Counted from the stretch's first letter, positions 6,762 through 50,346 are shown. The stretch is DNA of 64,000 nt from Candidatus Adlerbacteria bacterium (GCA_028286685.1 JAQBRA010000002.1:1073-65072), one strand, 5' to 3'. Translations and numbers: made by a program. The notes: generated by a model not told the origin, from the sequence alone.

Positions 6762-6833
6762 GGCCACGTAGCCAAGTAGAAAGGCGCGGGACTGCAAATC
6801 CTGTATGCGCGGGTGCGATTCCCGCCGTGGCCT
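6762..6833 (+). tRNA. tRNA-Cys(GCA)
   Basis: Cloverleaf with acceptor GGCCACG/CGTGGCC, anticodon loop CTGCAAA, and T-arm GGGTGCGATTCCC. Confidence 0.8.
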
Positions 6834-7008
6834 CAAGGAGAGTATTCGACGCTGGGGCCACGGAGAGAAGCATGGGATGCTTCTCGTCGGGAATCGCAAG
6901 CCGGAGCGGGCCCCATGCCTCTTGGCATGGGAGCGAGGCAGGGCCGTGCGGCACATGATCCAGTGGTATCATGTGAACGCCTGGCCGATCCGCCGTGGCC
7001 TCAAGTTT
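6834..7008 (+). repeat. tRNA-linked structured repeat element, copy 1 (ends with a 16-nt duplicate of the tRNA-Cys 3' end)
   Basis: Conserved core aagccggagc...gcgaggcagggccgtgcggc...gaacgcctgg plus two hairpins that covary against copies 2 and 3. The terminal ccgccgtggcctcaag repeats 6823-6838. Confidence 0.6.
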
Positions 7009-7012
7009 ATTT

Positions 7013-7096
7013 GCCGGGGTGATGGAATGGTAGACATAGGGGACTTAAAATCCCCAGAGCTAATATCTCGTGTGGGTTCGAGTCCCACCCCCGGCA
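7013..7096 (+). tRNA. tRNA-Leu(TAA)
   Basis: Acceptor GCCGGGG/CCCCGGC, anticodon loop CTTAAAA, long variable arm, and T-arm GTGGGTTCGAGTCCCAC. Confidence 0.85.
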
Positions 7097-7101
7097 CCGG
7101 T

Positions 7102-7980
7102 ATGGATTTTTTATACGGAAAGCTAGAGCAAGCACCTGAGGGTTTTTGTCCACCTGAGATGTGGCCTGAGTACGCGATCGTGTCCCAGCCTACCTGGCCC
7201 TGCACAAGCGAAGGTGTAGGCAAGGACCCCAGCGGCGTACGCTGGGGTCTATGGCCCTTTACCTTTGAAGACTACATAAGCGACAAAGAACCAAACCTGC
7301 AGGAGTCGCGCAAAGGCACACTGGCCCGCAATCGCGTTATTACGTGGGAGCGCGTGCGCAAAACCAACATACCCCGGGGATGGATGCAGTTTAGCAGAGC
7401 ACCCTCGCGCATAGATGGCGTTTTATCCCTAGATCAAGATCAGGATTATACCCTTTCATGGAATAAGAATGCCCGCCGCGATTTGCGAATTTTTAAAGAC
7501 AAAGTGGCAAGCGGGCTCTATGCAGTAGTGCCGATTTCAATGGATGCGTTTGCAGGTGCTTACCGACAAAGCCTGATAGCCCAACGTGTTGATCTCCGCC
7601 GCCTCGAGGATCTTGAGCGCAAGTTTGCACATCCAGCCGCGCAAGGACATATAAAATTATGGGGTGTTCGTAACACTCAAACTGATGCCATAGTAGCGGG
7701 CACTGCTATTAATTATTCTCCTACCTATAAAAACTCGACTCATATTGCGCCCTTTATACTTGAGGAAGGGCGCCACCTCTGCGCCGCAACGGGGCTTATT
7801 GACCATTGGTTTGCAGAATCCATAAAACACGGCTGCACTTTTGCAACCACGCTCAACTTTTGGTTTAAGGGCCAGCCCAAAGAGTGGCGCGGGTTTTCTG
7901 AATTCAAATCGCACTTTGGGTTTCAGTTTGTGGCCTATCCACCTCGGCTCTATAAGTTCGTTTTAGGGAAGATTTTTTAA
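7102..7980 (+). CDS. FemAB-like / GNAT-fold (Acetyltransf_6-type) acyltransferase family protein; low-GC, likely acquired
   Basis: C-terminal GFSEFKSHFGFQFVAYP matches the FemAB/BioF2-like G-x-x-FK-x-x-FG motif. GC is visibly lower than its surroundings. The ORF-track start at 6805 would run across two tRNAs, so the ATG at 7102 was used. Confidence 0.4.
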   Translation: MDFLYGKLEQAPEGFCPPEMWPEYAIVSQPTWPCTSEGVGKDPSGVRWGLWPFTFEDYISDKEPNLQESRKGTLARNRVITWERVRKTNIPRGWMQFSRAPSRIDGVLSLDQDQDYTLSWNKNARRDLRIFKDKVASGLYAVVPISMDAFAGAYRQSLIAQRVDLRRLEDLERKFAHPAAQGHIKLWGVRNTQTDAIVAGTAINYSPTYKNSTHIAPFILEEGRHLCAATGLIDHWFAESIKHGCTFATTLNFWFKGQPKEWRGFSEFKSHFGFQFVAYPPRLYKFVLGKIF

Positions 7981-8573: not shown

Positions 8574-9734
8574 ATGACACACATGGACGTTGCTCCAGGT
8601 CCGGATATCGTCAGTCGAGATACGGACCGAGTCGACACTTATCCCGCCTACTACTTCCTCGCACTCATTGTGCTTGCGGCGGCCTGGTTTCTGACAGGTC
8701 TCGTATTTTACGGGATACCCGTCGGATACGGCAGCTTAACGATCTACATGAGCACCGTCATCTGGGCTTTGGGAGCCGCGCACTTTGCGACCAGCTTCAG
8801 GATTGTAGAGCCTGACTACTTCGCTGGCGTCCTGGTGTTCGGAACGCCGACCGTTGTCGTGACTGGCAAACCGCTCTTGGTGCCCATGGGAATCTTTAAA
8901 GTCATAGAGATCTCCCGGGGCATCATCCAAATGGAGCTGCCCAACGAGCCGAATCTCATCTTCCGCAAAGAGGATGTAGAGATTGTTCCTCCTGGCATGT
9001 CACCCCCAATCCGGGTGACCTTCAAGAAGGGAGTGGCAGGCGACGATGGCTTTGATCCAAACGATCCGTTTGATGACAGGTCGACTCAAGAAGTGACTCC
9101 TATCATTCGCTTCAGGATTCAAGACGAAGAAGGGTTCTGGACGTTCTTCGTAAGGCTCGGAGGATTCGACGAAGCGCGCAAGCAAGCCGAAGACATGAGC
9201 ATCGCCGTTCTCCAGCAGTGGCTGACAGCACTCACTCTTCGGCAAGCTTTCGCGGGTATCGGAACAATCAACCGACATTACGACGATTACATCCGAGCGC
9301 AGACTAAAGGATGGGGCATCGAGATCGACAGTGCACACATCAAACTTATTGGCCTGTCGCACTCCTTCAATACAGCCATCCAGGATATCCCGCGCGCCAA
9401 AGCCGAAAAACTTGCTCGAACTTCTCGGGCAGAAGCTAAGCAGATTGAGCTCACGCGCGAAGGACTCGGCGAGGCTAATGCCAGAAAAGCACTTCTTTTT
9501 GCTGAAGCCTCTGGTCTTGAAGAGAAAGCGAAGTCACTTGGCGTAACCGGACACGACATGCTCGGTGCCGATACGGCCCGAGCGATCGGAGAGTCCGGCA
9601 ATATGATTATTGTCGGCGCTCAAGGCCTTACGGAAGCCGTTACCGCCGCGTTTGCGGCGGGAAAAGGCATGCAAGGAAAACCCAAACCCACACCCCCTGC
9701 CACTGAACCAGGCACACCACCCACTGGAGCATAG
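8574..9734 (+). CDS. SPFH/Band-7 (stomatin/flotillin-like) domain membrane protein
   Basis: N-terminal TM helices, then an SPFH-like core (...IRFRIQDEEGFWTFFVRLGGFDEARKQAEDMSIAVLQQWL...), then an Ala/Glu-rich coiled coil and a Pro-rich tail. Confidence 0.6.
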   Translation: MTHMDVAPGPDIVSRDTDRVDTYPAYYFLALIVLAAAWFLTGLVFYGIPVGYGSLTIYMSTVIWALGAAHFATSFRIVEPDYFAGVLVFGTPTVVVTGKPLLVPMGIFKVIEISRGIIQMELPNEPNLIFRKEDVEIVPPGMSPPIRVTFKKGVAGDDGFDPNDPFDDRSTQEVTPIIRFRIQDEEGFWTFFVRLGGFDEARKQAEDMSIAVLQQWLTALTLRQAFAGIGTINRHYDDYIRAQTKGWGIEIDSAHIKLIGLSHSFNTAIQDIPRAKAEKLARTSRAEAKQIELTREGLGEANARKALLFAEASGLEEKAKSLGVTGHDMLGADTARAIGESGNMIIVGAQGLTEAVTAAFAAGKGMQGKPKPTPPATEPGTPPTGA

Positions 9735-9736
9735 AA

Positions 9737-10642
9737 ATGGAACTGACTTACGGAATCGCTATCTTTGTCCTCGTGGTGTTTTCCGTTTATTTTGGAAGAC
9801 ACTGGGAAAAGAAAGGCTCTACACGTATCAGCAGACCATCCCCCGTAACCCCTTCTACCAGAACACCGGAAGATACCGCAAACGAAGACAAAACTCCTCC
9901 TGCGGCTTCTGGCTGGTGGAAAGCGATAGGGGGCGTATCTGGTCGGTTTGTAACCTATTGGTCGACAAACTGGGCGTATGTTCTTCTGCCGCCCGCAGCG
10001 GTAGCACTGTCCCTTGTCCTGTTTGCATACTCCTTCCCTGAATGGTGGTGGTCATACAAACAATGGAATGGACCGACCTGGCAACTTGTGGTTGCCACGC
10101 TCGCACTCGGACTTATCAAGGTCTCTCCTCTCGCGCCCTCTTGGCGCGGGAGACTTACGGCATTAGTGCTCGTATTCGCGGTCGGAGCCTTTGTGTGGAC
10201 ACTTCTTGTCCGGGCTCCGTTCTTCTGCGCTCCTGGCGACACCGCGTGTCGCCAGGAGGAAGCCCGGGTGGCGAACGAGAAGCGTCTGGCCGTCCTGCAA
10301 GATCAGGCACGGCGCGCTAAACAAGAGCGGCGTGATGCAGTGGCACGAACGGACTGCACCCATGGCGTGTTGGCGACCATAGAGCTCAACCAAGAGCCGG
10401 TCACATTCCCCAACCGCTGCGTGTTTATCTTCGATATTACGGCCGGACCTGTCTGGTTCAAGGGCAGGGACGGCACTGTTGTCGGAGGCAGCACCGGAGT
10501 TACTGCAGGAGCTCGAGTGCCATGGCCCAGCGGGTTTCGACTCCTGGGCGCATGGTCGCGAGGCAACGGCAAGCTCGAAGGCGTCTTCTGCCCGGAAGAG
10601 CGGCCGGTATGGCGCAGCGGAACTTGCTCGCATACCGGTTAG
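9737..10642 (+). CDS. multi-pass membrane protein, partner of the SPFH gene (NfeD-like role possible)
   Basis: Start is 3 nt after the SPFH stop. It has four predicted TM segments, then a Cys-containing soluble C-terminal domain. No recognisable family. Confidence 0.4.
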   Translation: MELTYGIAIFVLVVFSVYFGRHWEKKGSTRISRPSPVTPSTRTPEDTANEDKTPPAASGWWKAIGGVSGRFVTYWSTNWAYVLLPPAAVALSLVLFAYSFPEWWWSYKQWNGPTWQLVVATLALGLIKVSPLAPSWRGRLTALVLVFAVGAFVWTLLVRAPFFCAPGDTACRQEEARVANEKRLAVLQDQARRAKQERRDAVARTDCTHGVLATIELNQEPVTFPNRCVFIFDITAGPVWFKGRDGTVVGGSTGVTAGARVPWPSGFRLLGAWSRGNGKLEGVFCPEERPVWRSGTCSHTG

Positions 10643-10677
10643 CAAACTTAGTTCTTACTGAAATCCCTTCTGGGGTA

Positions 10678-10709
10678 CGCAGGACCAATTGGTCCTGCGT
10701 TTTTCTTTT
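10678..10709 (+). terminator. rho-independent terminator
   Basis: cgcaggaccaattggtcctgcg followed by tttttctttt. Confidence 0.7.
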
Positions 10710-10792
10710 CCCAAAAACCCTTATAAAAGGCCGTCTTTTGCTCCCCTCTCCCATCACTTGACTTTTATACTCAAGTATGCTACTATTGATAT

Positions 10793-11269
10793 ATGCAAAA
10801 GACCCTTATAACCACTGCCGTGTTGGCCGCGCTTTTTGCTCCTCTATCAGCTATAGCCGCCTCGGTACCCACCGGATACTCTTACGACCCGGGCTATTCC
10901 TACACGCCTGGATACTCATATACCCCTGGCTACTCTATCCCGTCCGGCCACTCTGAAAACTCAGGCACTTCTATATCGTCGGGCCAGTCAATCTCAAGCG
11001 GTTCATCCATACCGTCGGGCCACTCTATACCTTCCGGCTACTCTATCCCCTCCGGACACTCGATACCTTCCGGCCATTCCGTAGAATCGGGACACTCTAT
11101 ATCGTCCGGCCAGTCCATCCAAACCGGCCATTCTATACAGTCGGGTTACTCTATTAGCTCCGGACATTCCATACAGTCGGGCCGCTCTATTCAGACCGGA
11201 TACTCAATACCTTCCGGCCGCTCCATAGAGTCCGGACATTCGATAGAGGGAACAAAGCTCAGCTGGTAA
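10793..11269 (+). CDS. secreted His/Ser/Gly-rich hexapeptide-repeat protein
   Basis: Signal peptide MQKTLITTAVLAALFAPLSAIAAS, then about 20 tandem S-I-x-S-G-H/Y/Q/R hexapeptides (18-bp DNA repeats). Confidence 0.6.
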   Translation: MQKTLITTAVLAALFAPLSAIAASVPTGYSYDPGYSYTPGYSYTPGYSIPSGHSENSGTSISSGQSISSGSSIPSGHSIPSGYSIPSGHSIPSGHSVESGHSISSGQSIQTGHSIQSGYSISSGHSIQSGRSIQTGYSIPSGRSIESGHSIEGTKLSW

Positions 11270-11282
11270 TACCCCGAAAGCC

Positions 11283-11325
11283 AAAACAAAACTCCCGGAC
11301 TTACGTCCGGGAGTTTTGTTTCTGC
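11283..11325 (+). terminator. rho-independent terminator (bidirectional hairpin)
   Basis: aaaacaaaactcccggac-ttac-gtccgggagttttgtttt. Confidence 0.7.
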
Positions 11326-11335
11326 ACTTACTACA

Positions 11336-11617
11336 TTAGCAAGGCAAATTGCCGCCAACCATAGTAGAGATAAGTTTTATGATTGCAATGGCGGAGACCA
11401 TGATAAACATGCCTCCCAGGCCCCACAGCATATGCTGTTTGCCCTCTTCTTTCTTGCCGGCCTCATTGCTTAGGCCCCACAGAAATTCCACAAGCCCCCA
11501 GACGAACACCAAAAGCCCTGCCGCGAATATGAGTGCGAGTAGCGGGTTTATAAACGCCTCGGTCAGCTTGCCGACGATGGTGCAGGTAGCGCTATTTGTA
11601 ACGGCAGCAGATAGCAT
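11336..11617 (-). CDS. VirB2/TrbC-like (T4SS-pilin-like) small membrane protein, paralog 1
   Basis: Two hydrophobic helices with the shared F-x-W-G-L-V-x-F/Y-L-x-G ... K ... L-x-W-G-L ... motif. Confidence 0.5.
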   Translation of the reverse strand: MLSAAVTNSATCTIVGKLTEAFINPLLALIFAAGLLVFVWGLVEFLWGLSNEAGKKEEGKQHMLWGLGGMFIMVSAIAIIKLISTMVGGNLPC

Positions 11618-11622
11618 GATTA

Positions 11623-12018
11623 TTATGGGGTATACCCGTCTTTACCGAAGAGAGGGCCGCTGCTATTGCCATACTGTATCTGCGGGGCTTTTCCTCGGGC
11701 ATTTTCATCGATACCGAGCGCTTCTTGCATAAGGGCAACAATACCCCAAACCGACACCATAACAAACAAGGTTATAAGGCCCCACTTCATCAGGTCCTTG
11801 CCCTTCTCGTGCCCGCTCTTGCTCGATGCCCCCCACAGGTAGCGCACCAAGCCCCAGAAGAACACGACCAGCGCTAGGGTAATGAGTATCGGTATGAGCG
11901 CTCCTATAAGACTCCCAAAAGCCCCTAAGAGGCTTTCAATAGGCGACAGGTTAAGTCCTTGGGCAGAGGCCCATGCGGGCAAAGCGAACAGGAGCAAAGC
12001 TGCAGACCTTTTTATCAT
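11623..12018 (-). CDS. VirB2/TrbC-like (T4SS-pilin-like) small membrane protein, paralog 2
   Basis: Signal peptide, then ILITLALVVFFWGLVRYLWGA...KDLMKWGLITLFVMVSVWGIV. Confidence 0.5.
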   Translation of the reverse strand: MIKRSAALLLFALPAWASAQGLNLSPIESLLGAFGSLIGALIPILITLALVVFFWGLVRYLWGASSKSGHEKGKDLMKWGLITLFVMVSVWGIVALMQEALGIDENARGKAPQIQYGNSSGPLFGKDGYTP

Positions 12019-12372
12019 TTACGGTACGAGTGCTTTAGGAGAGAGGACATCTGCATTGCGCTGGACACCCAAAGCATCCTGGGCCAGGCGGACAATGCCC
12101 CAGACCGACACCATGACAAACAAAGTTACGAGACCCCACTTCATCAGGTCCTTAGCACCGGCGGTGTTTGACTTGCCGCCAGCGCCGTACAAGTAGCGCA
12201 CCAAGCCCCAGAAAAAGACAACGAGTGCCAAGGTGATGAGTATCGGAACCAAGGCGGCAACGAGGCGGCCTACGGCGCCAATAAGATTGGCCAAAGGCTG
12301 TAGGCTCTGAGCCGAAGCCGCAAGCGGCAGTGCTAAAGAAAGGGCTGATAGTGCGGCGAAGGTCTTTTTCAT
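12019..12372 (-). CDS. VirB2/TrbC-like (T4SS-pilin-like) small membrane protein, paralog 3
   Basis: Core is near-identical to paralog 2 (ILITLALVVFFWGLVRYLYGA...KDLMKWGLVTLFVMVSVWGIV). The tail differs. Confidence 0.5.
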   Translation of the reverse strand: MKKTFAALSALSLALPLAASAQSLQPLANLIGAVGRLVAALVPILITLALVVFFWGLVRYLYGAGGKSNTAGAKDLMKWGLVTLFVMVSVWGIVRLAQDALGVQRNADVLSPKALVP

Positions 12373-12455
12373 TAAAATAACTTAAACGGGTATGGCTCTA
12401 TTCTAGCAGGCCCCTGCTCTCTTTTGCTTTGCCGTGTGGATAACAAAGGGCCAGG

Positions 12456-12698
12456 TTAGGCCGGCAGGAATATCCCCTGTAGCAATTGCAGTATGCCAAA
12501 TATGGATACCAGCACAAACAGCGCCACCAGGCCCCAGCCCAACAGCTCTTTTTGGCCCTGCTTGTCATGCGAGTCGCCGGACAGGTACAAGAACCGTACT
12601 GCGCCCCATAAAAATATGGCCAGCGCTACCGAGCCCAAGAGAGCCACCAGGACGTTTATAACGCTAATTATCTGGCCAACGAGGACGGAAAAAGTCAT
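12456..12698 (-). CDS. VirB2/TrbC-like (T4SS-pilin-like) small membrane protein, paralog 4
   Basis: LAIFLWGAVRFLYLSG...KELLGWGLVALFVLVSIFGIL. Confidence 0.45.
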   Translation of the reverse strand: MTFSVLVGQIISVINVLVALLGSVALAIFLWGAVRFLYLSGDSHDKQGQKELLGWGLVALFVLVSIFGILQLLQGIFLPA

Positions 12699-12701
12699 AT
12701 A

Positions 12702-13148
12702 TTAGCGGCCACAGAACTGTATCGTACCGCTGGTATCGAGCGTTTGGATAGTTGCCGAAATGATGCTGGCCAAGGTCCAAGCGCCCAGGAATATGGCAAT
12801 GCCTAAAATGACAAACTTAAAGTTCCTTTTAGCGTCGTCGAGCCCTGTCGCGCTGCCACGGGCCAATATAAACCTGAAACCCGACCATACTAAGAACAAG
12901 ACCGCGATCGGCATGCCTATCGCCATAATAATGTTGAGCAGGGCCTTGACCAGGTTGCAGAAATCATCAACGCCCAGCGGGTTACACAACTTAAAAGTAC
13001 CTCCTTGTGATCCGCAATCAGAGCCTGTGGGAACGGAATTTTGATATGTCCCTGTCTGGACAGAGTTTGCCTGCGCCAAAGCAAATTGTGGAATAAGTAT
13101 TATTCCACAAAGGATGAGCGAGGTTGAGATAAATTTATAAAATTTCAT
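12702..13148 (-). CDS. VirB2/TrbC-like small membrane protein, divergent Cys-containing paralog 5
   Basis: Signal peptide, a Cys-rich N-terminal part, then AVLFLVWSGFRFILARG...KRNFKFVILGIAIFLGAW. Lower GC than the others. Confidence 0.4.
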   Translation of the reverse strand: MKFYKFISTSLILCGIILIPQFALAQANSVQTGTYQNSVPTGSDCGSQGGTFKLCNPLGVDDFCNLVKALLNIIMAIGMPIAVLFLVWSGFRFILARGSATGLDDAKRNFKFVILGIAIFLGAWTLASIISATIQTLDTSGTIQFCGR

Positions 13149-14440
13149 TGATTTGGCAAAAGCTGGCGCATAGCCTGGGCGGCATCAAAAACGGCCTGCT
13201 CGGGGTCGGTGCGCCCCGATGAGACAGATTCTATCATTGTTTTAAAGATGTTATTGGTCGCCGAGGCGTTCGGGTCATTCCACGAGCGCGAGATAAGCGC
13301 TGACTGTACGAACACCTCTCCGGCGGCAGAAGCCGAGGTGTCTATGGGCACATCGCGGCGCACCGGCGGCAAGGTGGTCTGCCCCGATACGGCAGCAATG
13401 CCTGCGGCCGAGGTAAGCTTTTGGGCCACCGCCAAAGCTCCGGCCGGGTTCTGCGCCCCGCGAGCAATGGAGAGCCCCGCGATATTGCCGGAGGTAATGC
13501 GGGATGAAGCGCCCATAAGCTGGGGCAGCACCGCAACGCCAAAGCGCAGGTTGGGATTGCGCTCCGCTATGGAGCGGTACTCGCTGGCAAAGCCGAAGTA
13601 AACTGCAACGTCGCCCGAAGCAAATGCGTTGTACGAGTTGGGCAGCGAGCGGTTCCACGAGTAGGTGGTTTTAGAAGGGTTGGCAAAATCGGTATAAAAC
13701 CGCAAGGCTCCGGCAGCCGGCGTGTCGCTCTGGTTTTCAGGCTTGGAACCTAAGACAGTGGTAAGCGCGCCCGCAGCATTGCGACTCGTGACAAAGTCTC
13801 CGGTCTGCATGAACAGGGCCGACAGGACCGCCTTGCCGTTGTTTATGTTGTCCCAGGTGCCCAGCGCCACCGCCGACTTGCGGACCGAGCCGGCAGAGAG
13901 CGAGGTTATCTTGGGCGCCAAGGTAATGAGATCATTCCAATACTGGGGCGGCTGGGCGATGCCAACCCCGGTAAAGGTGTCGCGGTTCCAGTACATGACC
14001 AAGGGGTCTATGGTAAACGGCAAGGCCAAGATGCCTCCCGGGGTCAAAAACAGCTGGCCCTCGTCAACAAAGGACGACATGAACGTGCTTTGCGTCACGG
14101 CGCTGTACGGGATAGGCACTATCTTGTCGGAAAGCCCGCCCATGCTGCTCTGCGAGAGGAAGACCAGGTCCGGACCGGTGCCTGCTGCAATGGCATTTAC
14201 CAGGTCAGACTCGTACGTGGCCGGGCTGTGATAGTAATACTGCACATCCGAGAGGCTCTTATCCGCGCTAGACACCTCGCCTAGGACCGAGTCCATGGTC
14301 GACTGGTCGATAGTGCCCCAGACAATAACCGTGCCTATTCCCCCTTGGCCGCCCACACCCCCAAAAAGAGCGAAGACGCCGATACCGATGACGACAAGGG
14401 CTACGAAAATGCCGGTAACTATGGTTTGGAAGCTGGACAT
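13145..14440 (-). CDS. membrane-anchored extracellular solute-binding protein (ABC-transporter SBP family 1-like)
   Basis: N-terminal TM anchor, then a periplasmic-binding-protein-like sequence (...DLVFLSQSSMGGLSDKIVPIPY...WNDLITLAPKI...). Confidence 0.5.
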   Translation of the reverse strand: MSSFQTIVTGIFVALVVIGIGVFALFGGVGGQGGIGTVIVWGTIDQSTMDSVLGEVSSADKSLSDVQYYYHSPATYESDLVNAIAAGTGPDLVFLSQSSMGGLSDKIVPIPYSAVTQSTFMSSFVDEGQLFLTPGGILALPFTIDPLVMYWNRDTFTGVGIAQPPQYWNDLITLAPKITSLSAGSVRKSAVALGTWDNINNGKAVLSALFMQTGDFVTSRNAAGALTTVLGSKPENQSDTPAAGALRFYTDFANPSKTTYSWNRSLPNSYNAFASGDVAVYFGFASEYRSIAERNPNLRFGVAVLPQLMGASSRITSGNIAGLSIARGAQNPAGALAVAQKLTSAAGIAAVSGQTTLPPVRRDVPIDTSASAAGEVFVQSALISRSWNDPNASATNNIFKTMIESVSSGRTDPEQAVFDAAQAMRQLLPNQ

Positions 14441-20427: not shown

Positions 20428-21048
20428 TTATGCGCCCAAAACGACGACTTCGGCCTCTTTGCCCTCAAGGTCCTTGCGCTTGACGGTCAGTTTTTCCTCG
20501 GCCTTTGTGCCCTCGGCACCCGCCTCCTTAAGGAATGATTTGAGCGCGGCCGCATCGTAGTGCATGGGCACGATTACCTTGGGGCCGAGCTGCACGGCCA
20601 GCTTATAGGCCGCCGCATGATCAAGCACTTCGCCGCCGCCGACCGGTATAAACAGTATATCGACTTCATCAACTTCTTGCTTGGCAGCCGCGGGCAGCTC
20701 GGCCGAGCCCATGGCGCCCAAAAAGCACAGGTTCATGCCCTCGAGCGATATAGAGTAGATAGTATTGATAGTCGCCTGCTTGTCGTAGGTCGTAGGCGCA
20801 CCAAAGCCACGCACTGCTACGCCCTTAACCTCATACTCGCCCGCGCCGCTTATAACGAACGGCTGGCGCTCGCCGAAGGAGGCGTTTTCGGTGCCATTGA
20901 AGTCTTCATGCGGCAAAGAGACAAGGGCGATGTCAGCGCCAAACTTAGAGGTGGCAAGCTTGGAGGATTTGCCGGGCGGGTTGATAGCGATAGTCAGATC
21001 GCCAAAGGTAACCTTAAAGCACTCGCCGCCCAGGTAGCTGATAACCAT
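20428..21048 (-). CDS. MBL-fold metallo-hydrolase
   Basis: Beta-lactamase-fold-like ...DIALVSLPHEDFNG...VIVPMHYD. Confidence 0.5.
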   Translation of the reverse strand: MVISYLGGECFKVTFGDLTIAINPPGKSSKLATSKFGADIALVSLPHEDFNGTENASFGERQPFVISGAGEYEVKGVAVRGFGAPTTYDKQATINTIYSISLEGMNLCFLGAMGSAELPAAAKQEVDEVDILFIPVGGGEVLDHAAAYKLAVQLGPKVIVPMHYDAAALKSFLKEAGAEGTKAEEKLTVKRKDLEGKEAEVVVLGA

Positions 21049-33524: not shown

Positions 33525-35423
33525 TTACGGCAACGACTGGCGGCCCTGTGTGGCCCCTACGACGGGTATCCCCTTCTGTTTTATATAATTGACTATGCTC
33601 TGGAACATGCTGGGCGTTACGGAGTAGAGACTGTTGTTAGTGTCAATATCGTGGAACGCGAGTATGAGCCACGTACGCGTCTGCGCCGCAGTATCGACCC
33701 ACTGCTTGACCTGGTCGAGCGTCACGGTATTACGCAGCTCCTGGTACTCGAGCTGGTACGGGTCGGAGTTGGTGGACACGTAGCCGCTTATGGTCGCGGC
33801 CGCACTGGTAAAGCCTGCGTCTCGCACGACCTGGAGCGTCGTCGCGTCGTACTCGCCGTACGGGTACGCGAACGAAAGCACCGACCCCACGCTCCACCCC
33901 AAAAGATCCTGCCGCGACCCGGCTATCTCGTCCTGCTCCTGCTGGGGTGTGAGCGCGGTCAAGTGCGCATGCGTGCGGGTGTGCGCGCCTATCTCGTGCC
34001 CGCGAGCCGCCAGGTCCTGCACTTGCGCCTTGGACACAAAGCCCGGAAAGCCATTGTCGGCCGTCTCGCGCGAGATAATATAGAACATCCCCTTGAATCC
34101 GGCCGTATCGAGCATGGGCGCGGCCGCGGAGTACTGGCTGCTTAAGCCGTCATCGAAGCGGAAGGTCACCGCCCCGGTCAAGAATATGCCGCTCGAGGCC
34201 GAAGAGGCGGTTATGGCTACGTTGTCGAGCGATAGCGTACCGTTGCCTTTGATAAGGTGGAAGACTCTCGTCTTGGCCGCAGCAGATGGCACCGAAAGAG
34301 CGGCCGTGGCAGTAGTCCACGACGAGGCGGCAGGCAAGGTCTTGAGGTCCGCGTAGAAAAAGCTGCCGTCGGCGCGCTGGAATTCTGCGGTCAAGATTGT
34401 CGGCACGTTCGCCATATAGCTGTCCGAGTAGGTATACGCGCCCGGTGAGAGCGCCACCTGCTCGTGCACCCACTTGGCGTCGCCGCTTGCGTAGCCCGAC
34501 ATAGCTATCTGCGCGCCATTGCCGCTCTGTCCCGAGACGGGATATGTAAACACGCGCGTATTGCTGCCATAGCCGCCGCGGGCCCAACGCGCTGGGAGCC
34601 CCCCGGAGCCCGCGGTCTCGAAGTCGCCGTTTAGCACCGAGTTCTGGGCGGACGGAGGCGGCGGGGACGGCGGCATGACCTCGCGCAGGACGTAGTCGTC
34701 GGTATCGAGCGTGCCGTTGCTTTTAATAAGATGGAAGATCGTCGCTGACACCGTGCCCGCGGGCGCCGCAAATTGCACCGTGATGTTCGTGTATGCGGCG
34801 CTCGCGGGCAAGGTGGCAACGTCCTTATAAACGAACGTGCCGCCCGAGAGCGCAAAGCGGATAGTGACTATGCTTGCGGCCGTGCTTTTGTAGGTGTCCG
34901 AAAATTCGTAGGTCTTGCCGCCTGTTACGGGCATGTCGTCCGGGTACCACTTGGCGTCGCCGCTTGCGTAATTGGATAGTGCGACCTCAACGCCACTGCC
35001 ACTTTTGCCCGGCACGGGGTACGTAAGCGCTCGCGTGCTGCTGCCGTAGCCGCCCTTGTGCCAGCTGGCTGGCAGGCCGGGCTGACCGGCAGTCTCAAGC
35101 CCGGGATTAGGCACCAGATTGGGGCCAAAGCTGGAAGCTGCCGGAGCGAGCGCGGCGGGAGCCGCCGCGGGCGCTGTCTTGTTGCCGCTCGGCAGCGTAG
35201 GACTCGGTATAGGCGCCTTTCTGTCTATGTTGGGCTCTTGCGCGGTTTCGCGGTGCGGTATGAGTATGGGCCCGGCGCGCTGCAGGTTAGGGTCCGCGGC
35301 GCTTTCTTGGTTTGGGACCGGAGCGCCGAAGGAGACCCCGAGCGGCGCCACCAGCGCCACCATGACAATAAGCGTCGCTATTTTCTTTCGCCCGCGCCAC
35401 CAATTGTTTACATTGTCTTTCAT
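33525..35423 (-). CDS. secreted polysaccharide deacetylase (NodB domain) with two tandem CBM4/9-like carbohydrate-binding modules
   Basis: NodB motifs FRFDDG...HTRTHAHL. Two about 130-aa repeats (NPGLETAG...SNYASGDAKW and NGDFETAG...SGYASGDAKW). Confidence 0.65.
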   Translation of the reverse strand: MKDNVNNWWRGRKKIATLIVMVALVAPLGVSFGAPVPNQESAADPNLQRAGPILIPHRETAQEPNIDRKAPIPSPTLPSGNKTAPAAAPAALAPAASSFGPNLVPNPGLETAGQPGLPASWHKGGYGSSTRALTYPVPGKSGSGVEVALSNYASGDAKWYPDDMPVTGGKTYEFSDTYKSTAASIVTIRFALSGGTFVYKDVATLPASAAYTNITVQFAAPAGTVSATIFHLIKSNGTLDTDDYVLREVMPPSPPPPSAQNSVLNGDFETAGSGGLPARWARGGYGSNTRVFTYPVSGQSGNGAQIAMSGYASGDAKWVHEQVALSPGAYTYSDSYMANVPTILTAEFQRADGSFFYADLKTLPAASSWTTATAALSVPSAAAKTRVFHLIKGNGTLSLDNVAITASSASSGIFLTGAVTFRFDDGLSSQYSAAAPMLDTAGFKGMFYIISRETADNGFPGFVSKAQVQDLAARGHEIGAHTRTHAHLTALTPQQEQDEIAGSRQDLLGWSVGSVLSFAYPYGEYDATTLQVVRDAGFTSAAATISGYVSTNSDPYQLEYQELRNTVTLDQVKQWVDTAAQTRTWLILAFHDIDTNNSLYSVTPSMFQSIVNYIKQKGIPVVGATQGRQSLP

Positions 35424-35677
35424 ACCTACATATCGTCTTTAACATACGGACGCGATTTCGCGTAAGTGTAGTGCGTATGCCGTGATAGGACTGTGAACAA
35501 AGGCTATGGACAAAGCACGCATGCCGTAGCACAGCGCAATAATCTGAAGATGAAATATGGCGCAACCGTGCGATATACGATTCTTCATTAAGTTTCATCG
35601 TCCTTTCACTATTGACCATATTCACCGAGTCTTAAAGAATATGCAGGTGCGAAGCTTACCCGTTATGAATTCCAAGA

Positions 35678-37438
35678 TTGCAACCCATGCGTATTACAAA
35701 AGCCGCGCTCGTCGCGACTCTATCCCTCAGTGTGCTACTGCCGACGTTCGCGTCGGCGCAGACAGCTTCGGTCTATTACCCGTTCAACAGTGCGGGCACG
35801 CTCTATCAAGCGAGCTCTGCCGAAAAAAGCCCCAGTTCCTACTTCTGGCTTAAAAGCGGCGCCAAACTCGTCATCAAAGATGGTGTGGGCAACACGATAC
35901 AAGGCGCCCTTCCCGCCGACGATCCGTGGAGAAAGACCTATGCATCGACCCTCGCCACGGCCTCCGACAATGGCGCGCACCCGCAGAACACCTTCCTCCT
36001 GCTAACCCGGGCCGCATACAAGAACACCTCCGCACAGATATATGTGCGCCGTACGGCCGACAACCTTACAAACCCGGCCAATCGACAGCCCTACAACGGC
36101 GAGTCGATCCTCGCGCGGTACCAGAGTGACGGAACCTTCTACTATGCCGGCATCCGAGCCGATGGCACGGTCGTCATCAAAAAGAAATTGAACGGCGCAT
36201 ACCAAACGCTCTCGCAGAAGAAGGTGCTCTCTGGCACGTATAACGCAAGTTCAAATCCTAACCTCATCCCTAAAAACACCTGGATAGGACTTAAGCTCAC
36301 GATTGAAGACACCAGCGCAGGCCCGCAACTTACCCTCTTTACCGATGTGAGTAAGACCGGCGCGTGGAGCAAGGCGCTCAGCGTTATCGACGACAAGGCG
36401 AAATTCGGCAGCCCTATCACGGGCGCGGGTGTCGTCGGCATCCAAACCGATTACGCGGACGCGCAGTTCGACGACTTCCTCTTCTCGGAGATAGCGGCAA
36501 CATCGACCCCAGCCCCGACGCCAGCACCCACACCTACCCCTACTCCCACCCCCACTCCGACCCCGACGCCAGCACCCACACCTACGCCGACGCCTACCCC
36601 CGCACAGGGATATGACGCTACCGTGCTCGGCGGCAAGCCAGTCATGTACCTTGCAATGAACTCGTTCAGCACGGGCAAAGAGTCGGACCTAAGCGGCCAT
36701 AACAACGCCGGCGCCTACAAAGGCGGCACGCCCACGACGGCCGCGCTCCCTAACGGGGAGACGGCAGCCAACTTCAACGGCTCGAGCCAGTACCTGACCG
36801 TGCCGTCGAACGCCTCGCTCTCGATCCCGACTACCGGCAAATTGACGTGGGAGGCGTGGATCCGGCCCGATACGTTCCAGTTTTCCAACGCCAGCAGCGA
36901 TGGCTATGTCGACTGGATGGGCAAATGCGCAAACTACTCGCCGACGTGCGAGTGGGAGGCGCGCATCTACGGCGCATCGACCGCACAAGGCCGCCCCAAC
37001 CGACTCTCAGCCTACGCGTTCAACCCATCGGCCGGTCTCGGGAGCGCGGCCGACTGGCAGCCGCAGGCGGGCCTCCTGCAGGCGGGCAAGTGGCTCCACG
37101 TGGTCGCAGAATACGACCTATCGACGACGCCATCTGGGTGCTCCTCCGCTTACCCCGGATCGATCAACATCTGGGTCAACGGCATCAAGCAGAACTTCGC
37201 CGCACATGCACCGACCGGATGCATGAGCCAGTACAAAATATCCCCCAAAGCCGGCAGTTCGCCGCTTACTATCGGGACGATGGCGCTCGACACCTGGTTT
37301 AAGGGTGCGGTCGGCAAGGTCGCCGTGTACAACCGACTGCTGACGCAGACTGAAATCAATGCGCACTTCACTGCAATGACAGGCGCCAATCCTTCCGGCT
37401 CGTGCGCATCCACCTGTACCGCCGCGCTCGTGCAGTAA
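35678..37438 (+). CDS. secreted protein with a novel N-terminal domain, (TP)n linker and C-terminal LamG/concanavalin-A-like lectin domain
   Basis: Signal peptide. An N-terminal domain of about 250 aa paralogous to 41769..42605, then TPAPTPAPTPTPTPTPTPTPTPAPTPTPTPTPA, then a LamG_3-like domain (WEAWIRPD...WLHVVAEYD...IWVNG). Confidence 0.5.
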   Translation: MQPMRITKAALVATLSLSVLLPTFASAQTASVYYPFNSAGTLYQASSAEKSPSSYFWLKSGAKLVIKDGVGNTIQGALPADDPWRKTYASTLATASDNGAHPQNTFLLLTRAAYKNTSAQIYVRRTADNLTNPANRQPYNGESILARYQSDGTFYYAGIRADGTVVIKKKLNGAYQTLSQKKVLSGTYNASSNPNLIPKNTWIGLKLTIEDTSAGPQLTLFTDVSKTGAWSKALSVIDDKAKFGSPITGAGVVGIQTDYADAQFDDFLFSEIAATSTPAPTPAPTPTPTPTPTPTPTPAPTPTPTPTPAQGYDATVLGGKPVMYLAMNSFSTGKESDLSGHNNAGAYKGGTPTTAALPNGETAANFNGSSQYLTVPSNASLSIPTTGKLTWEAWIRPDTFQFSNASSDGYVDWMGKCANYSPTCEWEARIYGASTAQGRPNRLSAYAFNPSAGLGSAADWQPQAGLLQAGKWLHVVAEYDLSTTPSGCSSAYPGSINIWVNGIKQNFAAHAPTGCMSQYKISPKAGSSPLTIGTMALDTWFKGAVGKVAVYNRLLTQTEINAHFTAMTGANPSGSCASTCTAALVQ

Positions 37439-37537
37439 GGTTACCGACCTAAAAATCGACTCATCCCCCGTTCAGCGCAGTGCAACAGGCCATGGTTCAC
37501 TATCAGTTCAGCGTACTACGGTACAGTACGCCGTGAT

Positions 37538-38923
37538 ATGGAAGCTCAATCTGCGACAGAGAGAATAGCGGGAAAGGACGACAAGAAAGGACCGAAATCC
37601 CGCATCGACAAGCCGCGGAACGGGCAGGAAGATGAGCACCCACCCCCTCGCCTACTGAACGTAGCAGTGGTCGGCGTCGGCTATGTCGGCCTACCGCTCG
37701 CGCTCCTGGCCCGCGCAAAGGGCTACCGGGTGCGGGGCATCGACATCGACGAGCGCAAGCGCGCAGCTGTGCGTGACGCAGCCGTGGCCGACCTGGACGC
37801 CTCCTTTACGGAGGCGTTGCGCGTGCAGCCCTTAGAGGTCTCAGGCCATTTCGGCCCGGTGCGCAGCGCGAACATTGTCATCGTATGCGTGCCGACCCCG
37901 GTCGACGACGAGCATAACCCGGACCTCTCCTTGATCGAGGGAGCTGCACGCCGCGTCGGGCGCAACCTGCACCAAGGCGCACTCGTCATACTGGAGTCGA
38001 CCGTGCATCCCGGCACCTGCGACGAGATCTTTATCCCCATTTTAGAGAAAGCGTCGGGCCTGCGCGCCGGAAAGGATTTCGGCGTAGCCCATTGCCCGGA
38101 ACGCATCAACCCGGGAGACAAGGTTTGGACGATAGAACGCATCCCCCGCGTCGTGGGCGCCACGACCGAAAAGGCGCTTAGCTTGGCGGCCAGCTTCTAC
38201 CGCTCGATACTCAGCGCGTCGGTCCATGAGATGGAGAGCATTAAAGAGGCCGAGGCGGTCAAGGTGGTTGAGAATTCCTTTAGGGACATTAACATTGCCT
38301 TCGTCAACGAGCTCGCGATGTCCTTCAGCAAGCTTGGCATCGACGTCAGCCACGTGCTGAGCGGCGCCGCGACGAAGCCTTTCGGCTTCCTGCTCCATCA
38401 GCCGGGGTGCGGTGTTGGAGGGCATTGCATACCGGTCGACCCGTACTACCTTATACGGTACGCCAAGCGCAACGGATTTTCGCACCGCTTCCTGTCGCTC
38501 GCACGCACGATAAACGAAGGCATGCCCGCATATACAGTCTCGCTCGTCGAGACAGGCCTGCACTCGCTCGGACGCACGTTGAGCAACTCGAGCGTGGCGC
38601 TCTTGGGCCTCTCTTATAAAGCCAACGTAAGCGACCTGCGCGAGAGCCCGTCGTTCGAGATTAAGGAACTGCTTGAGAGTAAGGGGGCACGGGTGCGCAC
38701 CTTCGACGAGCATGCGCCCGACCGATCGACGACGCACTCGCTCGCCGAGGCGCTCGACGGGGCCGATGCCGCAATAGTCGCGACCGCCCATGCGGAGTTC
38801 GCTGGACTGCCCCCCTCGGTGTTCGCCTCGCGCGGCGTGCGCGTGGTGGTCGACGGACGCAACTGCCTCCAAAAGGAGCAGTACCTGCGGGCGGGCATCC
38901 TTTACCGCGGCATAGGCCGCTAA
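37538..38923 (+). CDS. nucleotide-sugar (UDP-glucose/UDP-ManNAc-type) 6-dehydrogenase
   Basis: VAVVGVGYVGLPLA Rossmann, catalytic Cys in GFLLHQPGCGVGGHCIPVDP, and a C-terminal UDP-binding domain. Confidence 0.75.
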   Translation: MEAQSATERIAGKDDKKGPKSRIDKPRNGQEDEHPPPRLLNVAVVGVGYVGLPLALLARAKGYRVRGIDIDERKRAAVRDAAVADLDASFTEALRVQPLEVSGHFGPVRSANIVIVCVPTPVDDEHNPDLSLIEGAARRVGRNLHQGALVILESTVHPGTCDEIFIPILEKASGLRAGKDFGVAHCPERINPGDKVWTIERIPRVVGATTEKALSLAASFYRSILSASVHEMESIKEAEAVKVVENSFRDINIAFVNELAMSFSKLGIDVSHVLSGAATKPFGFLLHQPGCGVGGHCIPVDPYYLIRYAKRNGFSHRFLSLARTINEGMPAYTVSLVETGLHSLGRTLSNSSVALLGLSYKANVSDLRESPSFEIKELLESKGARVRTFDEHAPDRSTTHSLAEALDGADAAIVATAHAEFAGLPPSVFASRGVRVVVDGRNCLQKEQYLRAGILYRGIGR

Positions 38924-38927
38924 GGCA

Positions 38928-40211
38928 ATGGAACCACTACCCACGCAGCGACGGCTCGCATTCCTGCAGGACGCAGGGCCCCTGTTTATGTTCTTCCTCG
39001 TGGTTTACTTCATCATCATTCTGAAGACCGCGACTGTCTCCTCCATCGTCGACCACTGGTTCTTTGGCTTATACAGTCTGCTCATCACGACCTACATCCT
39101 CTCACGCTTCCTGCTGTCGCATTTCCATGTAGTGCCCCGCGCGGACCCCGCCTACCGCCCGACCGTCACTTTCGTGGTGCCGGCCAAGAACGAGGAGGAC
39201 AACATACGCGAGACTATGCGCAAGTTCAGCGAGGTCGACTACCCGCCCGAACTTATCGAGGTGATAGCTATCAACGACGGCTCCACCGACCGGACGCTTG
39301 AGGAGATGCGCGCAGCTGCGCTTGAGATACGTGCGCGCATCGCGCGCGTCGAGGTTATCCACTGGGGCCACAATCGCGGCAAGCGCCACGGCATGGCGGA
39401 AGGAGTACAGCGCGCGCGGCACGAAATCATCATCTTCATCGACTCCGACAGCTTCATCGAGCCCGACTGCGTCACCCACCTGGTAAAGTACTTCGCCGAC
39501 CCGGCAGTCGGCGCGGTCTCGGGGCATACCGACGTCCACAACGACCAGGCAAACTTCCTCACCCGCATGCAGGCCATACGCTACTACCTGGCGTTCCGAG
39601 TCTACAAGGCGGCGGAGTCGGTATTCGGCGCGGTAACCTGCTGCCCAGGCTGCTGCAGTGCATACAAGCGCGCCTACCTTATACCCATACTCGACGAGTG
39701 GCTTACCCAGCGCTTTTTGGGCGGCCAGTGCACCTTTGGCGACGACCGCTCGCTCACCAACTTTATCCTGCGGAAATTCGAGGCGGTCTATGCGCCCGAG
39801 GCGCGAGCGCGCACCGTCGTGCCCGAGAAGTTCGCCACGTACGTGCGCCAGCAACAGCGCTGGAAAAAGTCGTGGATACGCGAGACTTTTATCGCATGCG
39901 GATTTATGTGGCGCAAGCATCCGCTCGCGGCGATATCCTTCTATACGTACGTTTTTTTGGCGTTCGCCTCTCCTATCGTGTTTGCCCGCGCGATGATCTG
40001 GCATCCGCTTACGACCGCAAGCGTGCCGCTTGTGTACCTCGCGGGACTCTTCCTCATGCTCATGCTGCACGGGCTCTACTACCGCCTGTACATGGGCCCG
40101 CGAGCGTGGCTCACGGGGATAATGAGCTTTTGGTTTAATTCCGTGGTGCTTATGTGGCAGCTCCCTTGGGCACTCATCACGCTCAAGGACTCCCGCTGGG
40201 GCACCCGTTAA
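38928..40211 (+). CDS. processive family-2 glycosyltransferase (PgaC/HasA/NodC-like polysaccharide synthase)
   Basis: N- and C-terminal TM bundles, D-x-D and DGSTD motifs, and QQRW (Q-x-x-R-W) in VRQQQRWKKSW. Confidence 0.7.
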   Translation: MEPLPTQRRLAFLQDAGPLFMFFLVVYFIIILKTATVSSIVDHWFFGLYSLLITTYILSRFLLSHFHVVPRADPAYRPTVTFVVPAKNEEDNIRETMRKFSEVDYPPELIEVIAINDGSTDRTLEEMRAAALEIRARIARVEVIHWGHNRGKRHGMAEGVQRARHEIIIFIDSDSFIEPDCVTHLVKYFADPAVGAVSGHTDVHNDQANFLTRMQAIRYYLAFRVYKAAESVFGAVTCCPGCCSAYKRAYLIPILDEWLTQRFLGGQCTFGDDRSLTNFILRKFEAVYAPEARARTVVPEKFATYVRQQQRWKKSWIRETFIACGFMWRKHPLAAISFYTYVFLAFASPIVFARAMIWHPLTTASVPLVYLAGLFLMLMLHGLYYRLYMGPRAWLTGIMSFWFNSVVLMWQLPWALITLKDSRWGTR

Positions 40212-40216
40212 CTCCC

Positions 40217-49659: not shown

Positions 49660-50346
49660 ATGTCCGGTGTGGCTCTTCTTATCGCCGTTGTGGGCGGGAT
49701 ACTGCCCGCGCTGCTGTGGCTCACGTTCTGGCTCATGGAGGACCGCTGCGACCCCGAGCCCAAGCGCTACATATTCTTCTGCTTTATCGGCGGCATGGTA
49801 GCGGTCCCGCTTATACTCCCTATCGAGCAGTATGTGGCGCATTACCTGGCGGGGACGCAGCTTTTGCTGGCCTGGGCAACGCTTGAGGAGTTGTTTAAAT
49901 TCGCTGCGGCGTACGCGGCCGCACTGCGCTTCAGGGTCTTTGACGAGCCTCTGGACGGCGTTATATACCTGGTTACGGCGGCGCTCGGATTCTCCGCGCT
50001 TGAAAACGTATTCTTCCTCCTCTCACCAGTCGGCGACGGCGATCTTTTGCGCACCATAGTCACGGGTGACTTGCGCTTTATCGGCGCAACGCTCTTGCAC
50101 ACGCTTTCATCTGCAACTATCGGCGTTGCGCTGGCGCTTTCGTTCTACAAGAGCGTGGCGCTGCGGAAATTCGCCGCATTCGCGGGAGTTATCCTTGCGG
50201 TCGCATTGCATACGCTCTTTAATTTTTTTATACTTACAAGCGGCAAGGGGTCGACCTTTATGGTCTTCCTCGCCATCTGGCTTGGCATCGTAGTACTCCT
50301 CTTTACCATAGAGCAGGTCAAGCAGCCGGCGCGCGACTACTGTTAG
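49660..50346 (+). CDS. PrsW-family intramembrane metalloprotease
   Basis: Multi-TM, with EELFK (E-E-x-x-K), FSALENVFF and TLLHTLSSA motifs. Confidence 0.65.
   Translation: MSGVALLIAVVGGILPALLWLTFWLMEDRCDPEPKRYIFFCFIGGMVAVPLILPIEQYVAHYLAGTQLLLAWATLEELFKFAAAYAAALRFRVFDEPLDGVIYLVTAALGFSALENVFFLLSPVGDGDLLRTIVTGDLRFIGATLLHTLSSATIGVALALSFYKSVALRKFAAFAGVILAVALHTLFNFFILTSGKGSTFMVFLAIWLGIVVLLFTIEQVKQPARDYC

Follow-up and report, generated by a model that had tools for sequence, protein, structure and literature searches.

Organization of the locus

The window analyzed here is the whole 64,000-nucleotide stretch of DNA from a Candidatus Adlerbacteria MAG (Patescibacteria/CPR). Outside the locus described below, the window is ordinary chromosome that encodes GyrA, a short IF-2, LepA, a class-I aminoacyl-tRNA synthetase, MurJ, TsaD, and 11 tRNAs. 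The target gene (10793..11269, plus strand) is an open reading frame (ORF) that begins with ATG and comprises 158 codons plus a stop. It is preceded on the same strand by genes for a Band_7/SPFH protein (8574-9734; assigned by Pfam) and a 301-aa membrane protein (9737-10642). On its other side, on the minus strand, lie five VirB2-like pilin genes (11336..13148; 93, 131, 117, 80, and 148 aa) and the gene for an extracellular solute-binding protein (SBP; 13145..14440; Pfam SBP_bac_1/8). The pilin array is convergent to the target. All five of its genes match the Pfam family T4SS_pilin (PF18895); four reach the gathering score, and the fifth scores 23.7 (cut-off, 26.6).

The Band_7, membrane protein, and SBP genes served as synteny anchors. 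The 301-aa protein and the SBP are identical to proteins JWL87_19 and JWL87_26, respectively, of a Candidatus Adlerbacteria bacterium MAG. A homology search with the 301-aa protein returns only the protein itself, while the SBP has 1,492 detectable homologs. We found no VirB4 gene within the 64-kb window and no metal transporter gene adjoining the target.

The target is predicted to be exported by a Sec-type signal peptide. This 22-aa peptide, MQKTLITTAVLAALFAPLSAIA (10793..10858, plus strand), was read from the sequence, and its predicted cleavage follows an AIA of the A-x-A type. Directly after it comes ASVPT, and the six-residue repeats (hexads) then begin. Three Tyr-rich hexads, GYSYDP, GYSYTP, and GYSYTP (10874..10927, plus strand), are followed by 18 hexads of the form G-[H8,Y4,Q2,R2,S,T]-S-[I16,V,E]-x-[S/T/G] (10928..11251, plus strand) and by a C-terminal motif, GTKLSW (11249..11266, plus strand), that was recognized by sequence comparison. 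All 21 hexads (nt 10874-11251) stand in one register with zero indels, and in the numbering used for the family the target hexad reads S1-G2-phi3-S4-a5-x6. The signal peptide is followed by no hydrophobic segment and no transmembrane helices. Among the 136 mature residues there are 8 His (5.9%), all at one hexad position, and 16 Ile, so that nearly every hexad holds one. The first-pass annotation of this DNA had described a secreted protein of about 20 hexapeptides, in good agreement with the signal peptide and 21 hexads reported here. Its count of at least 12 His is too high, and its statement that the protein has no hydrophobic core overlooks an Ile in almost every hexad.

The target is predicted to be transcribed separately, from a sigma-70-type promoter placed for a leaderless mRNA. 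A promoter scan finds a -35 hexamer, TTGACT (10758..10763), and an extended -10 element, TGcTACTAT (10778..10786), both on the plus strand. The resulting site, TTGACT-17-TACTAT with TG ahead of the -10, spans 10758-10786 and ends only 6 nt before the ATG, which is a leaderless-type layout. A -10-like hexamer lies 4-9 nt upstream of the ATG in 11 of the 32 window genes, against an expectation of ~5%. The promoter is also preserved among the orthologs described below: ACTTGACTTTT is invariant in five aligned loci (the window and four orthologs), TTGACT also occurs upstream in loci L019 and L020, and the orthologs keep TATG(A/C)TA..AT at the -10.

Terminators lie on both sides of the gene. The upstream one belongs to the 301-aa membrane protein gene (10677..10710, plus strand) and was found by the scan as a 10-bp stem with 7 G-C pairs followed by TTTTCTTTTC; it sets the target apart as a transcription unit. 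The downstream one (11284..11321) was missed by the terminator scan and detected by RNA folding, as a hairpin 3' of the stop codon with an energy of -30.2 kcal/mol and z = -7.3. It has a 17-bp stem and the A-tract, GC stem, and U-tract of a bidirectional intrinsic terminator, common to the target and the convergent pilin gene. A hairpin occupies the same place in the orthologs, with a different stem sequence. Both the promoter-like site and the strong terminator had been reported by the first-pass annotation, and both are borne out here.

A family recovered by synteny

Protein-level searches were nearly empty. A word-indexed homology search with the target returned nothing at E <= 0.001. An exhaustive phmmer search gave 313 matches, nearly all of them to unrelated hexad proteins: cytoplasmic G-x-[GS]-I-[KE]-A proteins, phage-like GDIGGW proteins, and WOR-1 lipoproteins. 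Among the 313, only P0019 appears to be homologous over the signal peptide and N-terminus. In this 116-aa fragment from soil, the match runs from the signal peptide through the Tyr-rich segment into the hexads (BLASTP 2e-25, 47% identity). Scans of genome contigs with the Band_7 neighbor and with the L012 ortholog yielded zero relatives, and a metagenome scan yielded only L002, which carries unrelated phage-like hexad paralogs, and soil proteins that share just GYSYDPGY. A literature search for the repeat peptides returned nothing relevant. The orthologs were found by synteny instead, with SBP orthologs used to fetch the loci.

Six orthologs occupy the position of the target, after the last pilin gene and convergent to it, followed by the membrane protein and Band_7. 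They are L012 (241 aa), L014 (233 aa), L015 (218 aa), L016 (178 aa), L019 (230 aa), and L020 (255 aa). All six loci share the gene order GyrA...SBP, pilin array, convergent hexad gene, membrane protein, Band_7, and the membrane protein and Band_7 pair flanks the ortholog in L014, L015, L016, L019, and L020. Their SBPs are 63-75% identical to the window SBP. L017 and L018, with SBPs of 60% and 56% identity, respectively, lack the hexad gene, and their pilin array abuts the membrane protein gene. To judge from these loci, the hexad family is restricted to the subclade in which the neighboring SBP is at least 63% identical.

The orthologs share a common architecture. A signal peptide of the pattern M-x-K-x-L-I-T-T...A-x-A is common to all six, and their cleavage sites have small residues at -3/-1 (SAVA, VASA, FASA, VEA, AVA). 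Every ortholog has the Tyr-rich N-terminal segment. The C-terminal family motif is G-[TVQ]-[QKE]-[IL]-[GS]-[WYF], with an xSPIYK extension in most orthologs. Between these ends, the family hexad is S1-G2-phi3-[S/A]4-[A/V/I]5-x6, and the ortholog consensus is S-G-Y-S-A/V-x. S1 and G2 are almost invariant across the family; position 3 is mostly Tyr and otherwise F, V, I, R, K, or H; and position 6 is free (P, Q, N, R, S, E). The mature chains consist to 70-80% of Ser, Gly, Tyr, Ala, and Pro, with no Cys and almost no charge.

Within the family, the window copy is an outlier. It has 21 hexads compared with 23-32 in the orthologs, 8 His compared with 0-3, 16 Ile compared with 2-8, and 1 Ala compared with 19-38. 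The His difference suggests that His in the window copy is a lineage-specific substitution at an aromatic position and not a conserved ligand.

We propose to define the family by this signal peptide, a Tyr-rich segment, an array of 20 or more S-G-phi-S/A-a-x hexads, G-x-x-[IL]-[GS]-[WYF] at the C-terminus, a location with the pilin array on one side and the membrane protein and Band_7 pair on the other, and a TTGACT-17-TAnnAT promoter. The window gene shows all of them, as do L012, L014, L015, L016, L019, and L020. These genes evidently make up an unnamed and unannotated family with a fixed chromosomal position, which we describe as the Adlerbacteria pilin-array-associated SGYS hexad protein.

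Selection on the peptide repeat

The hexads are conserved as peptide rather than as DNA. Tandem Repeats Finder (TRF) places an 18-bp array at 10877-11235 and also describes it with periods of 36 and 54 bp. The DNA units of the target share 58-63% identity, and the gene contains exact repeats of up to 14 bp. The first-pass annotation had called the 18-bp periodicity perfect; this is correct for the spacing, which is exact and without indels, but not for the units themselves, given their low identity.

Differences between units fall according to codon position. Within the target, codon positions 1+2 show an identity of 0.70-0.75 between units, and position 3 shows one of 0.36-0.39. For the orthologs, the same analysis was made on four loci (L012, L014, L015, L016). 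Across these and the window, identity between repeats at positions 1+2 is 0.62-0.76. At position 3, it is 0.33-0.43, compared with a random expectation of 0.29-0.40 from base composition in the four orthologs. The same peptide unit is spelled with differing codons between copies in each of the four, where the longest exact DNA repeat is 17-37 bp. Since third codon positions are near-random between repeats, the peptide period has been selected and is not a by-product of recent slippage. The pattern indicates that the hexad repeat frame is under purifying selection. The target evolves quickly in two respects, namely its copy number and three of its six hexad positions (3, 5, and 6).

The sense frame is the sole frame open from start to stop in all seven loci (the window and six orthologs). 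Long alternative frames occur in some orthologs, with an antisense frame of up to 217 codons in L014 and a second sense frame of 216 codons in L015. The repeats are kept in frame in all six orthologs; the first-pass annotation had named a loss of frame in relatives as evidence against it. Its further view that the locus is prone to repeat-number variation fares worse: codons are scrambled between units, and the only other assembly with the target locus (L001) is 100% identical across 6,639 bp, although species do differ in hexad number.

A 36-bp, two-hexad superperiod in the DNA is significant by permutation test in the window and in four of the six orthologs. A three-hexad superperiod (18 residues, 54 bp) had been suggested by the top-scoring 54-bp row of TRF and by the last nine hexads. 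It was rejected, as lag 3 is not significant in the permutation test, whereas lag 2 is.

Matches to known families

No profile in Pfam, NCBIfam, or PHROGs scores above its cut-off for the target or its orthologs. The sub-threshold matches are compositional, comprising LpxD/NeuD, collagen-like adhesins, a serine-rich protein, and a sulfur globule protein. In a sequence search of the PDB, the top match is to the SAQSGA repeat of Plasmodium MSP1, which is disordered; a match to LbH is below significance.

Individual families were examined in the same way. Pfam Hexapep (PF00132/PF14602) has no match in the target (E <= 0.1) or in the six orthologs (E <= 1). Its motif, [LIV]-[GAED]-X2-[STAV]-X, calls for a small residue two positions ahead of the aliphatic one and does not fit the protein, as 16 of the 18 window hexads have H, Y, Q, or R there. 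The collagen family (PF01391) scores 9.8-13.6 bits against a cut-off of 27.2 in five orthologs and has no match in L015; in the target, Gly occurs at every sixth residue only and not as G-X-Y at every third. NCBIfam models of Scl/Lcl score 15-39 bits against cut-offs of 325-500. The target has no match to T4SS_pilin or TrbC-VirB2 (PF18895, PF04956), to Curlin_rpt (PF07012; E <= 0.1), to Bactofilin (PF04519; Pfam), or to His-rich and metallochaperone families (Pfam, NCBIfam). The sulfur globule family (PF17228) does not match the window protein, and it reaches 24.1 bits in L016 and 14 bits in L020 against a cut-off of 26.7.

Predicted fold

Structure predictions for the target depend on the alignment supplied. 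From the single sequence, AlphaFold2 gives an unconfident model (pLDDT 39.6). With a 58-sequence hexad alignment, it gives a beta-helix over residues 60-150 with a pLDDT of ~90. In this model, 4-residue strands (S-I-x-S) alternate with G-h corners, and three hexads make one turn. The 58 rows were drawn from the phmmer matches, and cytoplasmic G-x-[GS]-I-[KE]-A proteins with no relation to the target make up most of them. Repeat sequences are a known case in which AlphaFold2 predicts solenoids too readily.

Most orthologs have Ala instead of Ile at the would-be core and Pro in many hexads, which would leave a very thin core. The 36-bp superperiod disagrees with the three hexads per turn of the model. 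We treat the beta-helix as a hypothesis only, because the alignment is mostly non-homologous, solenoids are over-predicted, the core would be Ala/Ser in most orthologs, and the superperiod is 36 bp.

The family pattern itself fits a beta rung, with an invariant small residue and Gly, a hydrophobic residue two positions off, and a free position that would face outward. The composition and Pro content would fit a disordered Tyr-sticker polymer equally well, and charge-hydropathy values lie at the order/disorder boundary.

Association with the pili

Repetitive sequence at this locus is not confined to the target. The first pilin in every array has 2-3 short tandem repeats right after its signal peptide, and these differ in each ortholog. 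Several of the proteins exported from the target locus thus have repetitive ends that evolve fast. Such repeats would be displayed on the surface if the pilin termini point outward here, as they do in F-type and VirB2-type pili.

A distantly related locus joins the two kinds of sequence in one protein. In P0124, a signal peptide leads into 8 S-G-G-[ST]-[IV]-x hexads, and these into a T4SS_pilin domain, which scores 27.5 bits (cut-off, 26.6). The protein belongs to a distant relative that has the same GyrA-SBP-pilin synteny and an SBP with 34% identity. The functional link between the target and the pili rests on conserved adjacency and on this one fusion protein. The target lies on the opposite strand to the pilin genes and is not co-transcribed with them.

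The suggestion of a surface-matrix protein in the first-pass annotation is compatible with these observations, namely a gene that always lies beside a VirB2-like array and a hexad-pilin fusion in a distant relative. VirB2-like pilin arrays of 2-11 genes are known in Patescibacteria, and no PrgB-type adhesin was detected in the CPR dataset of the same survey (10.1101/2025.01.22.634366).

Function of the hexad protein

We tentatively favor reading the target as an extracellular structural or adhesive partner of the pili that would self-assemble from beta rungs. More generally, the family is probably a cell-surface fiber or adhesive component rather than a dedicated metal binder. Export and signal-peptide cleavage would place a mature chain of ~13-14 kDa outside the cell. 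There, it would act as a structural or adhesive surface polymer alongside the pili, whether as a fiber, a coat, or a pilus-associated decoration. The chain would be arranged in regular beta-type rungs, with S-a-x-S as a short strand and G-phi as a corner, and ladders of Tyr or His could hold chains together or attach them to a host surface. Enrichment in His and Ile, a probable lineage-specific variation of the window copy, might add sensitivity to pH or metals, which would not be a property of the whole family.

Other explanations address the same features. One is that the exported chain is intrinsically disordered, a sticker-and-spacer or elastomeric polymer in which Tyr/His stickers at six-residue intervals and Ser/Gly/Pro spacers would form a gel, a coacervate, an adhesive film, or a flexible and possibly glycosylated spacer. 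The mature proteins are dominated by Ser, Gly, Tyr, Ala, and Pro, are almost uncharged, and lack Cys. The orthologs carry 10-28 [G/S]-Y-[G/S/A] motifs per ~200 residues, a density that resembles the FUS low-complexity domain, and Pro stands at position 6 in many hexads. The low pLDDT of the single-sequence model, the disordered MSP1 repeat as top PDB match, and the near-threshold sulfur globule score of L016 point the same way. Nevertheless, we consider disorder somewhat less likely than beta rungs: the register is strict and without indels over 21-33 copies, and S1 and G2 are invariant despite codon scrambling, as would be expected of a structural rung more than of a disordered spacer. In addition, hydrophobic and polar residues alternate in a beta-like manner, and the window copy has its 16 Ile.

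A His-rich protein for metal binding or metal storage is very unlikely, even though the His of the window copy all share one hexad position, would line the corners of the solenoid model, and could there form ladders. His makes up only 5.9% of the mature chain, and it occupies the most variable structural position, which is filled by Tyr, Val, Phe, or Arg in the orthologs. The target matches no known His-rich or metallochaperone family, and no metal transporter gene adjoins it. Metal binding, which the first-pass annotation had offered as a function, is therefore not upheld for the family, as the orthologs have 0-3 His against 8 here, at a position that is variably aromatic or hydrophobic.

The repeat itself could be explained at the level of DNA. 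A contingency locus, in which frequent 18-bp slippage would vary the phase or length of a surface antigen, is highly improbable. Hexad number does vary between species, and positions 3, 5, and 6 evolve fast, as such a locus would predict. Set against this are the short exact repeats (at most 14 bp here and 17-37 bp in the four orthologs), the scrambled third codon positions, and the identity of L001, the sole other assembly of the locus. Moreover, the unit length is a multiple of 3, so slippage would not switch the frame. It is barely credible that the target is a noncoding ORF that arose by chance in tandemly repeated DNA. More than one frame can stay open in a repeat, as the long alternative frames in L014 and L015 illustrate, and the exact protein is absent from a large clustered protein collection. 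Even so, no frame other than the sense frame stays open throughout the seven loci, conservation extends to the signal peptide, promoter, and terminator, and the substitution pattern tracks codon positions. The gene is also called in the Logan assembly, and the numbering from JWL87_19 to JWL87_26 leaves six genes between, which would fit the target plus five pilins. On this evidence, the ORF is a genuine protein-coding gene.

A protein resembling left-handed beta-helix acyltransferases or gamma-carbonic anhydrases was also considered, given weak NCBIfam hexapeptide matches to LpxD and NeuD (E = 0.0037 and 0.077) and the WOR-1 lipoproteins with x-[PQE]-S-G-h-x that reach the Pfam Hexapep threshold (P0024). 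This candidate is effectively refuted by profile scores, motif, export, and the absence of a catalytic domain. The LpxD score is 16.4 bits against a cut-off of 207, neither the target nor any ortholog matches Pfam Hexapep, and His or Tyr stands at the canonical small [STAV] position.

The reading that we favor, a self-assembling surface partner of the pili, lends itself to a broader and unlikely extension. The hexad proteins might represent a new class of extracellular self-assembling polymer in Patescibacteria, a Sec-exported fiber of beta rungs or Tyr/His stickers. Together with VirB2-like pili, it would supply the missing adhesin or attachment matrix of these presumed epibionts, with a fast-changing repeat number and changing stickers, such as the replacement of Tyr by His plus Ile in this genome, tuning host specificity or pH- or metal-dependent adhesion. 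VirB2-like pilin arrays occur widely in Patescibacteria, a group for which few surface attachment factors have been described. A conserved, exported, and fast-evolving repeat protein tied to such an array is a concrete candidate for a surface partner. The new family is narrow in distribution, and its context is suggestive. It also provides a clean example of a peptide repeat held by selection while its codons are scrambled, and it corrects the view of the target as a His-based metal binder or a slippage hot spot.

Comparison with known systems

The target shares single features with several known systems. Hexapep proteins (PF00132) have the same six-residue period, with aliphatic and small residues in fixed positions. 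They differ in that the target is predicted to be exported and has no enzyme domain, and its model is of the opposite hand. The collagen-like adhesins Scl1/Scl2 and Lcl are likewise exported surface repeat proteins, and their weak matches to the family are driven by an x-x-S sub-period; in contrast, the target has no LPXTG anchor and has Gly at every sixth residue. The right-handed triangular beta-helices of bactofilins and tapirins resemble the target only in the fold of the model built from a heterologous alignment, and the 36-bp superperiod does not fit an 18-residue turn. Furthermore, bactofilins are cytoplasmic, whereas the target bears a signal peptide.

Low-complexity proteins rich in Tyr, Gly, and Ser (and His), including sulfur globule proteins (PF17228), have a similar composition and regular [G/S]-Y-[G/S] stickers. 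The FUS [G/S]Y[G/S] domain, resilin, and the His-rich proteins of squid beak are also comparable to the target family in composition. None of these low-complexity proteins is homologous to the target, whose hexad register is much stricter and which is bacterial and, by prediction, exported. The pilins of T4SS_pilin arrays and P0124 are, like the target, small Sec-exported proteins, and the hexads of P0124 follow the same template. The target differs from the pilins in that it has no pilin domain and is encoded by its own gene on the opposite strand.

Curli CsgA and other secreted functional-amyloid solenoids are small Sec-exported proteins with imperfect repeats that are rich in Ser, Gly, Tyr, and Gln and contain few large hydrophobic residues, and the target is built likewise. 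The curli repeat is ~20 residues long, whereas that of the target is 6 (or 12). Curli also have partners of the CsgB/E/F/G type, while the neighbors of the target are instead the pilins, the SBP, Band_7, and the membrane protein. By analogy, it is plausible that the target resembles curli-type subunits in its mode of action, as a chain of self-polymerizing beta-rung units.

Repeat architecture at the hexad locus and in neighboring pilins

The repeat arrays carry a periodicity longer than the single hexad. We found a significant 36-bp (two-hexad) DNA superperiod in the window array at 10874-11251 (p = 0.002), and it is also significant in the orthologous arrays of L012, L014, L019, and L020. 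In neither the window array nor its orthologues did a three-hexad period of the DNA reach significance. The superperiod may reflect either the duplication history of the array or a 12-residue structural unit.

Short repeats also occur in the VirB2-like pilin (12702-13148, minus strand) encoded next to the solute-binding protein (SBP) gene. This pilin has two to three tandem repeats of 8-9 amino acids directly after its signal peptide. We compared this region between the window and the first pilin gene of the syntenic loci L012, L014, L015, L017, L019, and L020. The repeat sequence is different in each orthologue: the window pilin has NSVQTGTYQ/NSVPTGSD, while the orthologous repeats are PLVGGNTS x3, TFTTGGGS x3, PAVTGNQS x3, and GAIQPxxxG x3. 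Judged from these sequences, the mature N-terminus of the SBP-adjacent pilin is hypervariable.

In a distant relative, hexads are fused to a pilin. This protein, P0124 (locus L011, 10001-10906; GCA_034680565.1, contig JAXOUH010001851.1), has eight S-G-G-[ST]-[IV]-x hexads between its signal peptide and a T4SS_pilin domain. Its gene lies in the same GyrA-SBP-pilin-array synteny as in the window, and the SBPs of the two loci share only 34% identity.

Translation starts and other genes in the window

Many window genes look leaderless. A TANNNT hexamer ends 4-9 nt before the ATG in 11 of the 32 ATG-start genes, against an expectation of ~5%, most commonly at a spacing of 6 nt; a loose Shine-Dalgarno motif or better precedes only 13 of 57 long ORFs. 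Examples of this apparently leaderless type include the hexad gene itself (upstream element and start, 10781-10795) and the genes at 20428-21048 (-), 49660-50346 (+), 51358-52245 (-), and 52715-53341 (-).

Between the Band_7 and hexad genes lies a membrane protein gene (9737-10642, plus strand), for which a word search returned no homologue. Its product is strongly divergent from its counterparts in L014, L015, L016, L017, and L018, and all of them retain an extracellular C-terminal region in which two Cys are conserved. A 391-aa ORF at 6805-7980 (+) overlaps tRNA-Cys (6762-6834) and tRNA-Leu (7013-7098), has no Pfam match, and is probably not a gene. Elsewhere, an envelope-polysaccharide cluster (33525-41767) encodes two polysaccharide deacetylases, a Laminin_G_3 protein, a UDP-glucose dehydrogenase, and a chitin-synthase-like GT2 glycosyltransferase.

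Hexad proteins beyond the locus

Many cytoplasmic proteins among the exhaustive-search matches (including P0003, P0006, P0007, P0010, P0018, and P0066) form a large family, as yet unnamed, with G-x-[GS]-I-[KE]-A hexads. Several open with an FPxG..YQ(D/E)(I/L)LD-containing domain, one was wrongly labeled LpxD by its source, and Pfam gave nothing beyond weak FapA beta-solenoid matches.

A phage-like contig (L002, 5892-12368; VAPE01027443.1) encodes a set of four or more cytoplasmic paralogues. In each of them, an N-terminal domain (MNKYRILTD...GDIGGWIEKESNLSQ; phrog_5070/7964, no assigned function) precedes a stretch of G-[HYND]-S-[ITV]-Q-x hexads. These hexads show local identity to the GHSIQS units of the window protein.

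Secreted Gly/Tyr-rich proteins with PGY[SV]YD hexads occur in soil bacteria (L004, L006, and L009, from JGI soil metagenomes, and L005 and L007). In some, a Gln/Pro-rich tail follows the hexads; those of L005 and L007 end in ...YCRQRFRSYDPASGTYLGYDGLRHSCP, which we take to be putatively BA14K-like. The PGY[SV]YD motif is the sole feature that these soil proteins have in common with the window hexad protein, whose first three units it resembles.
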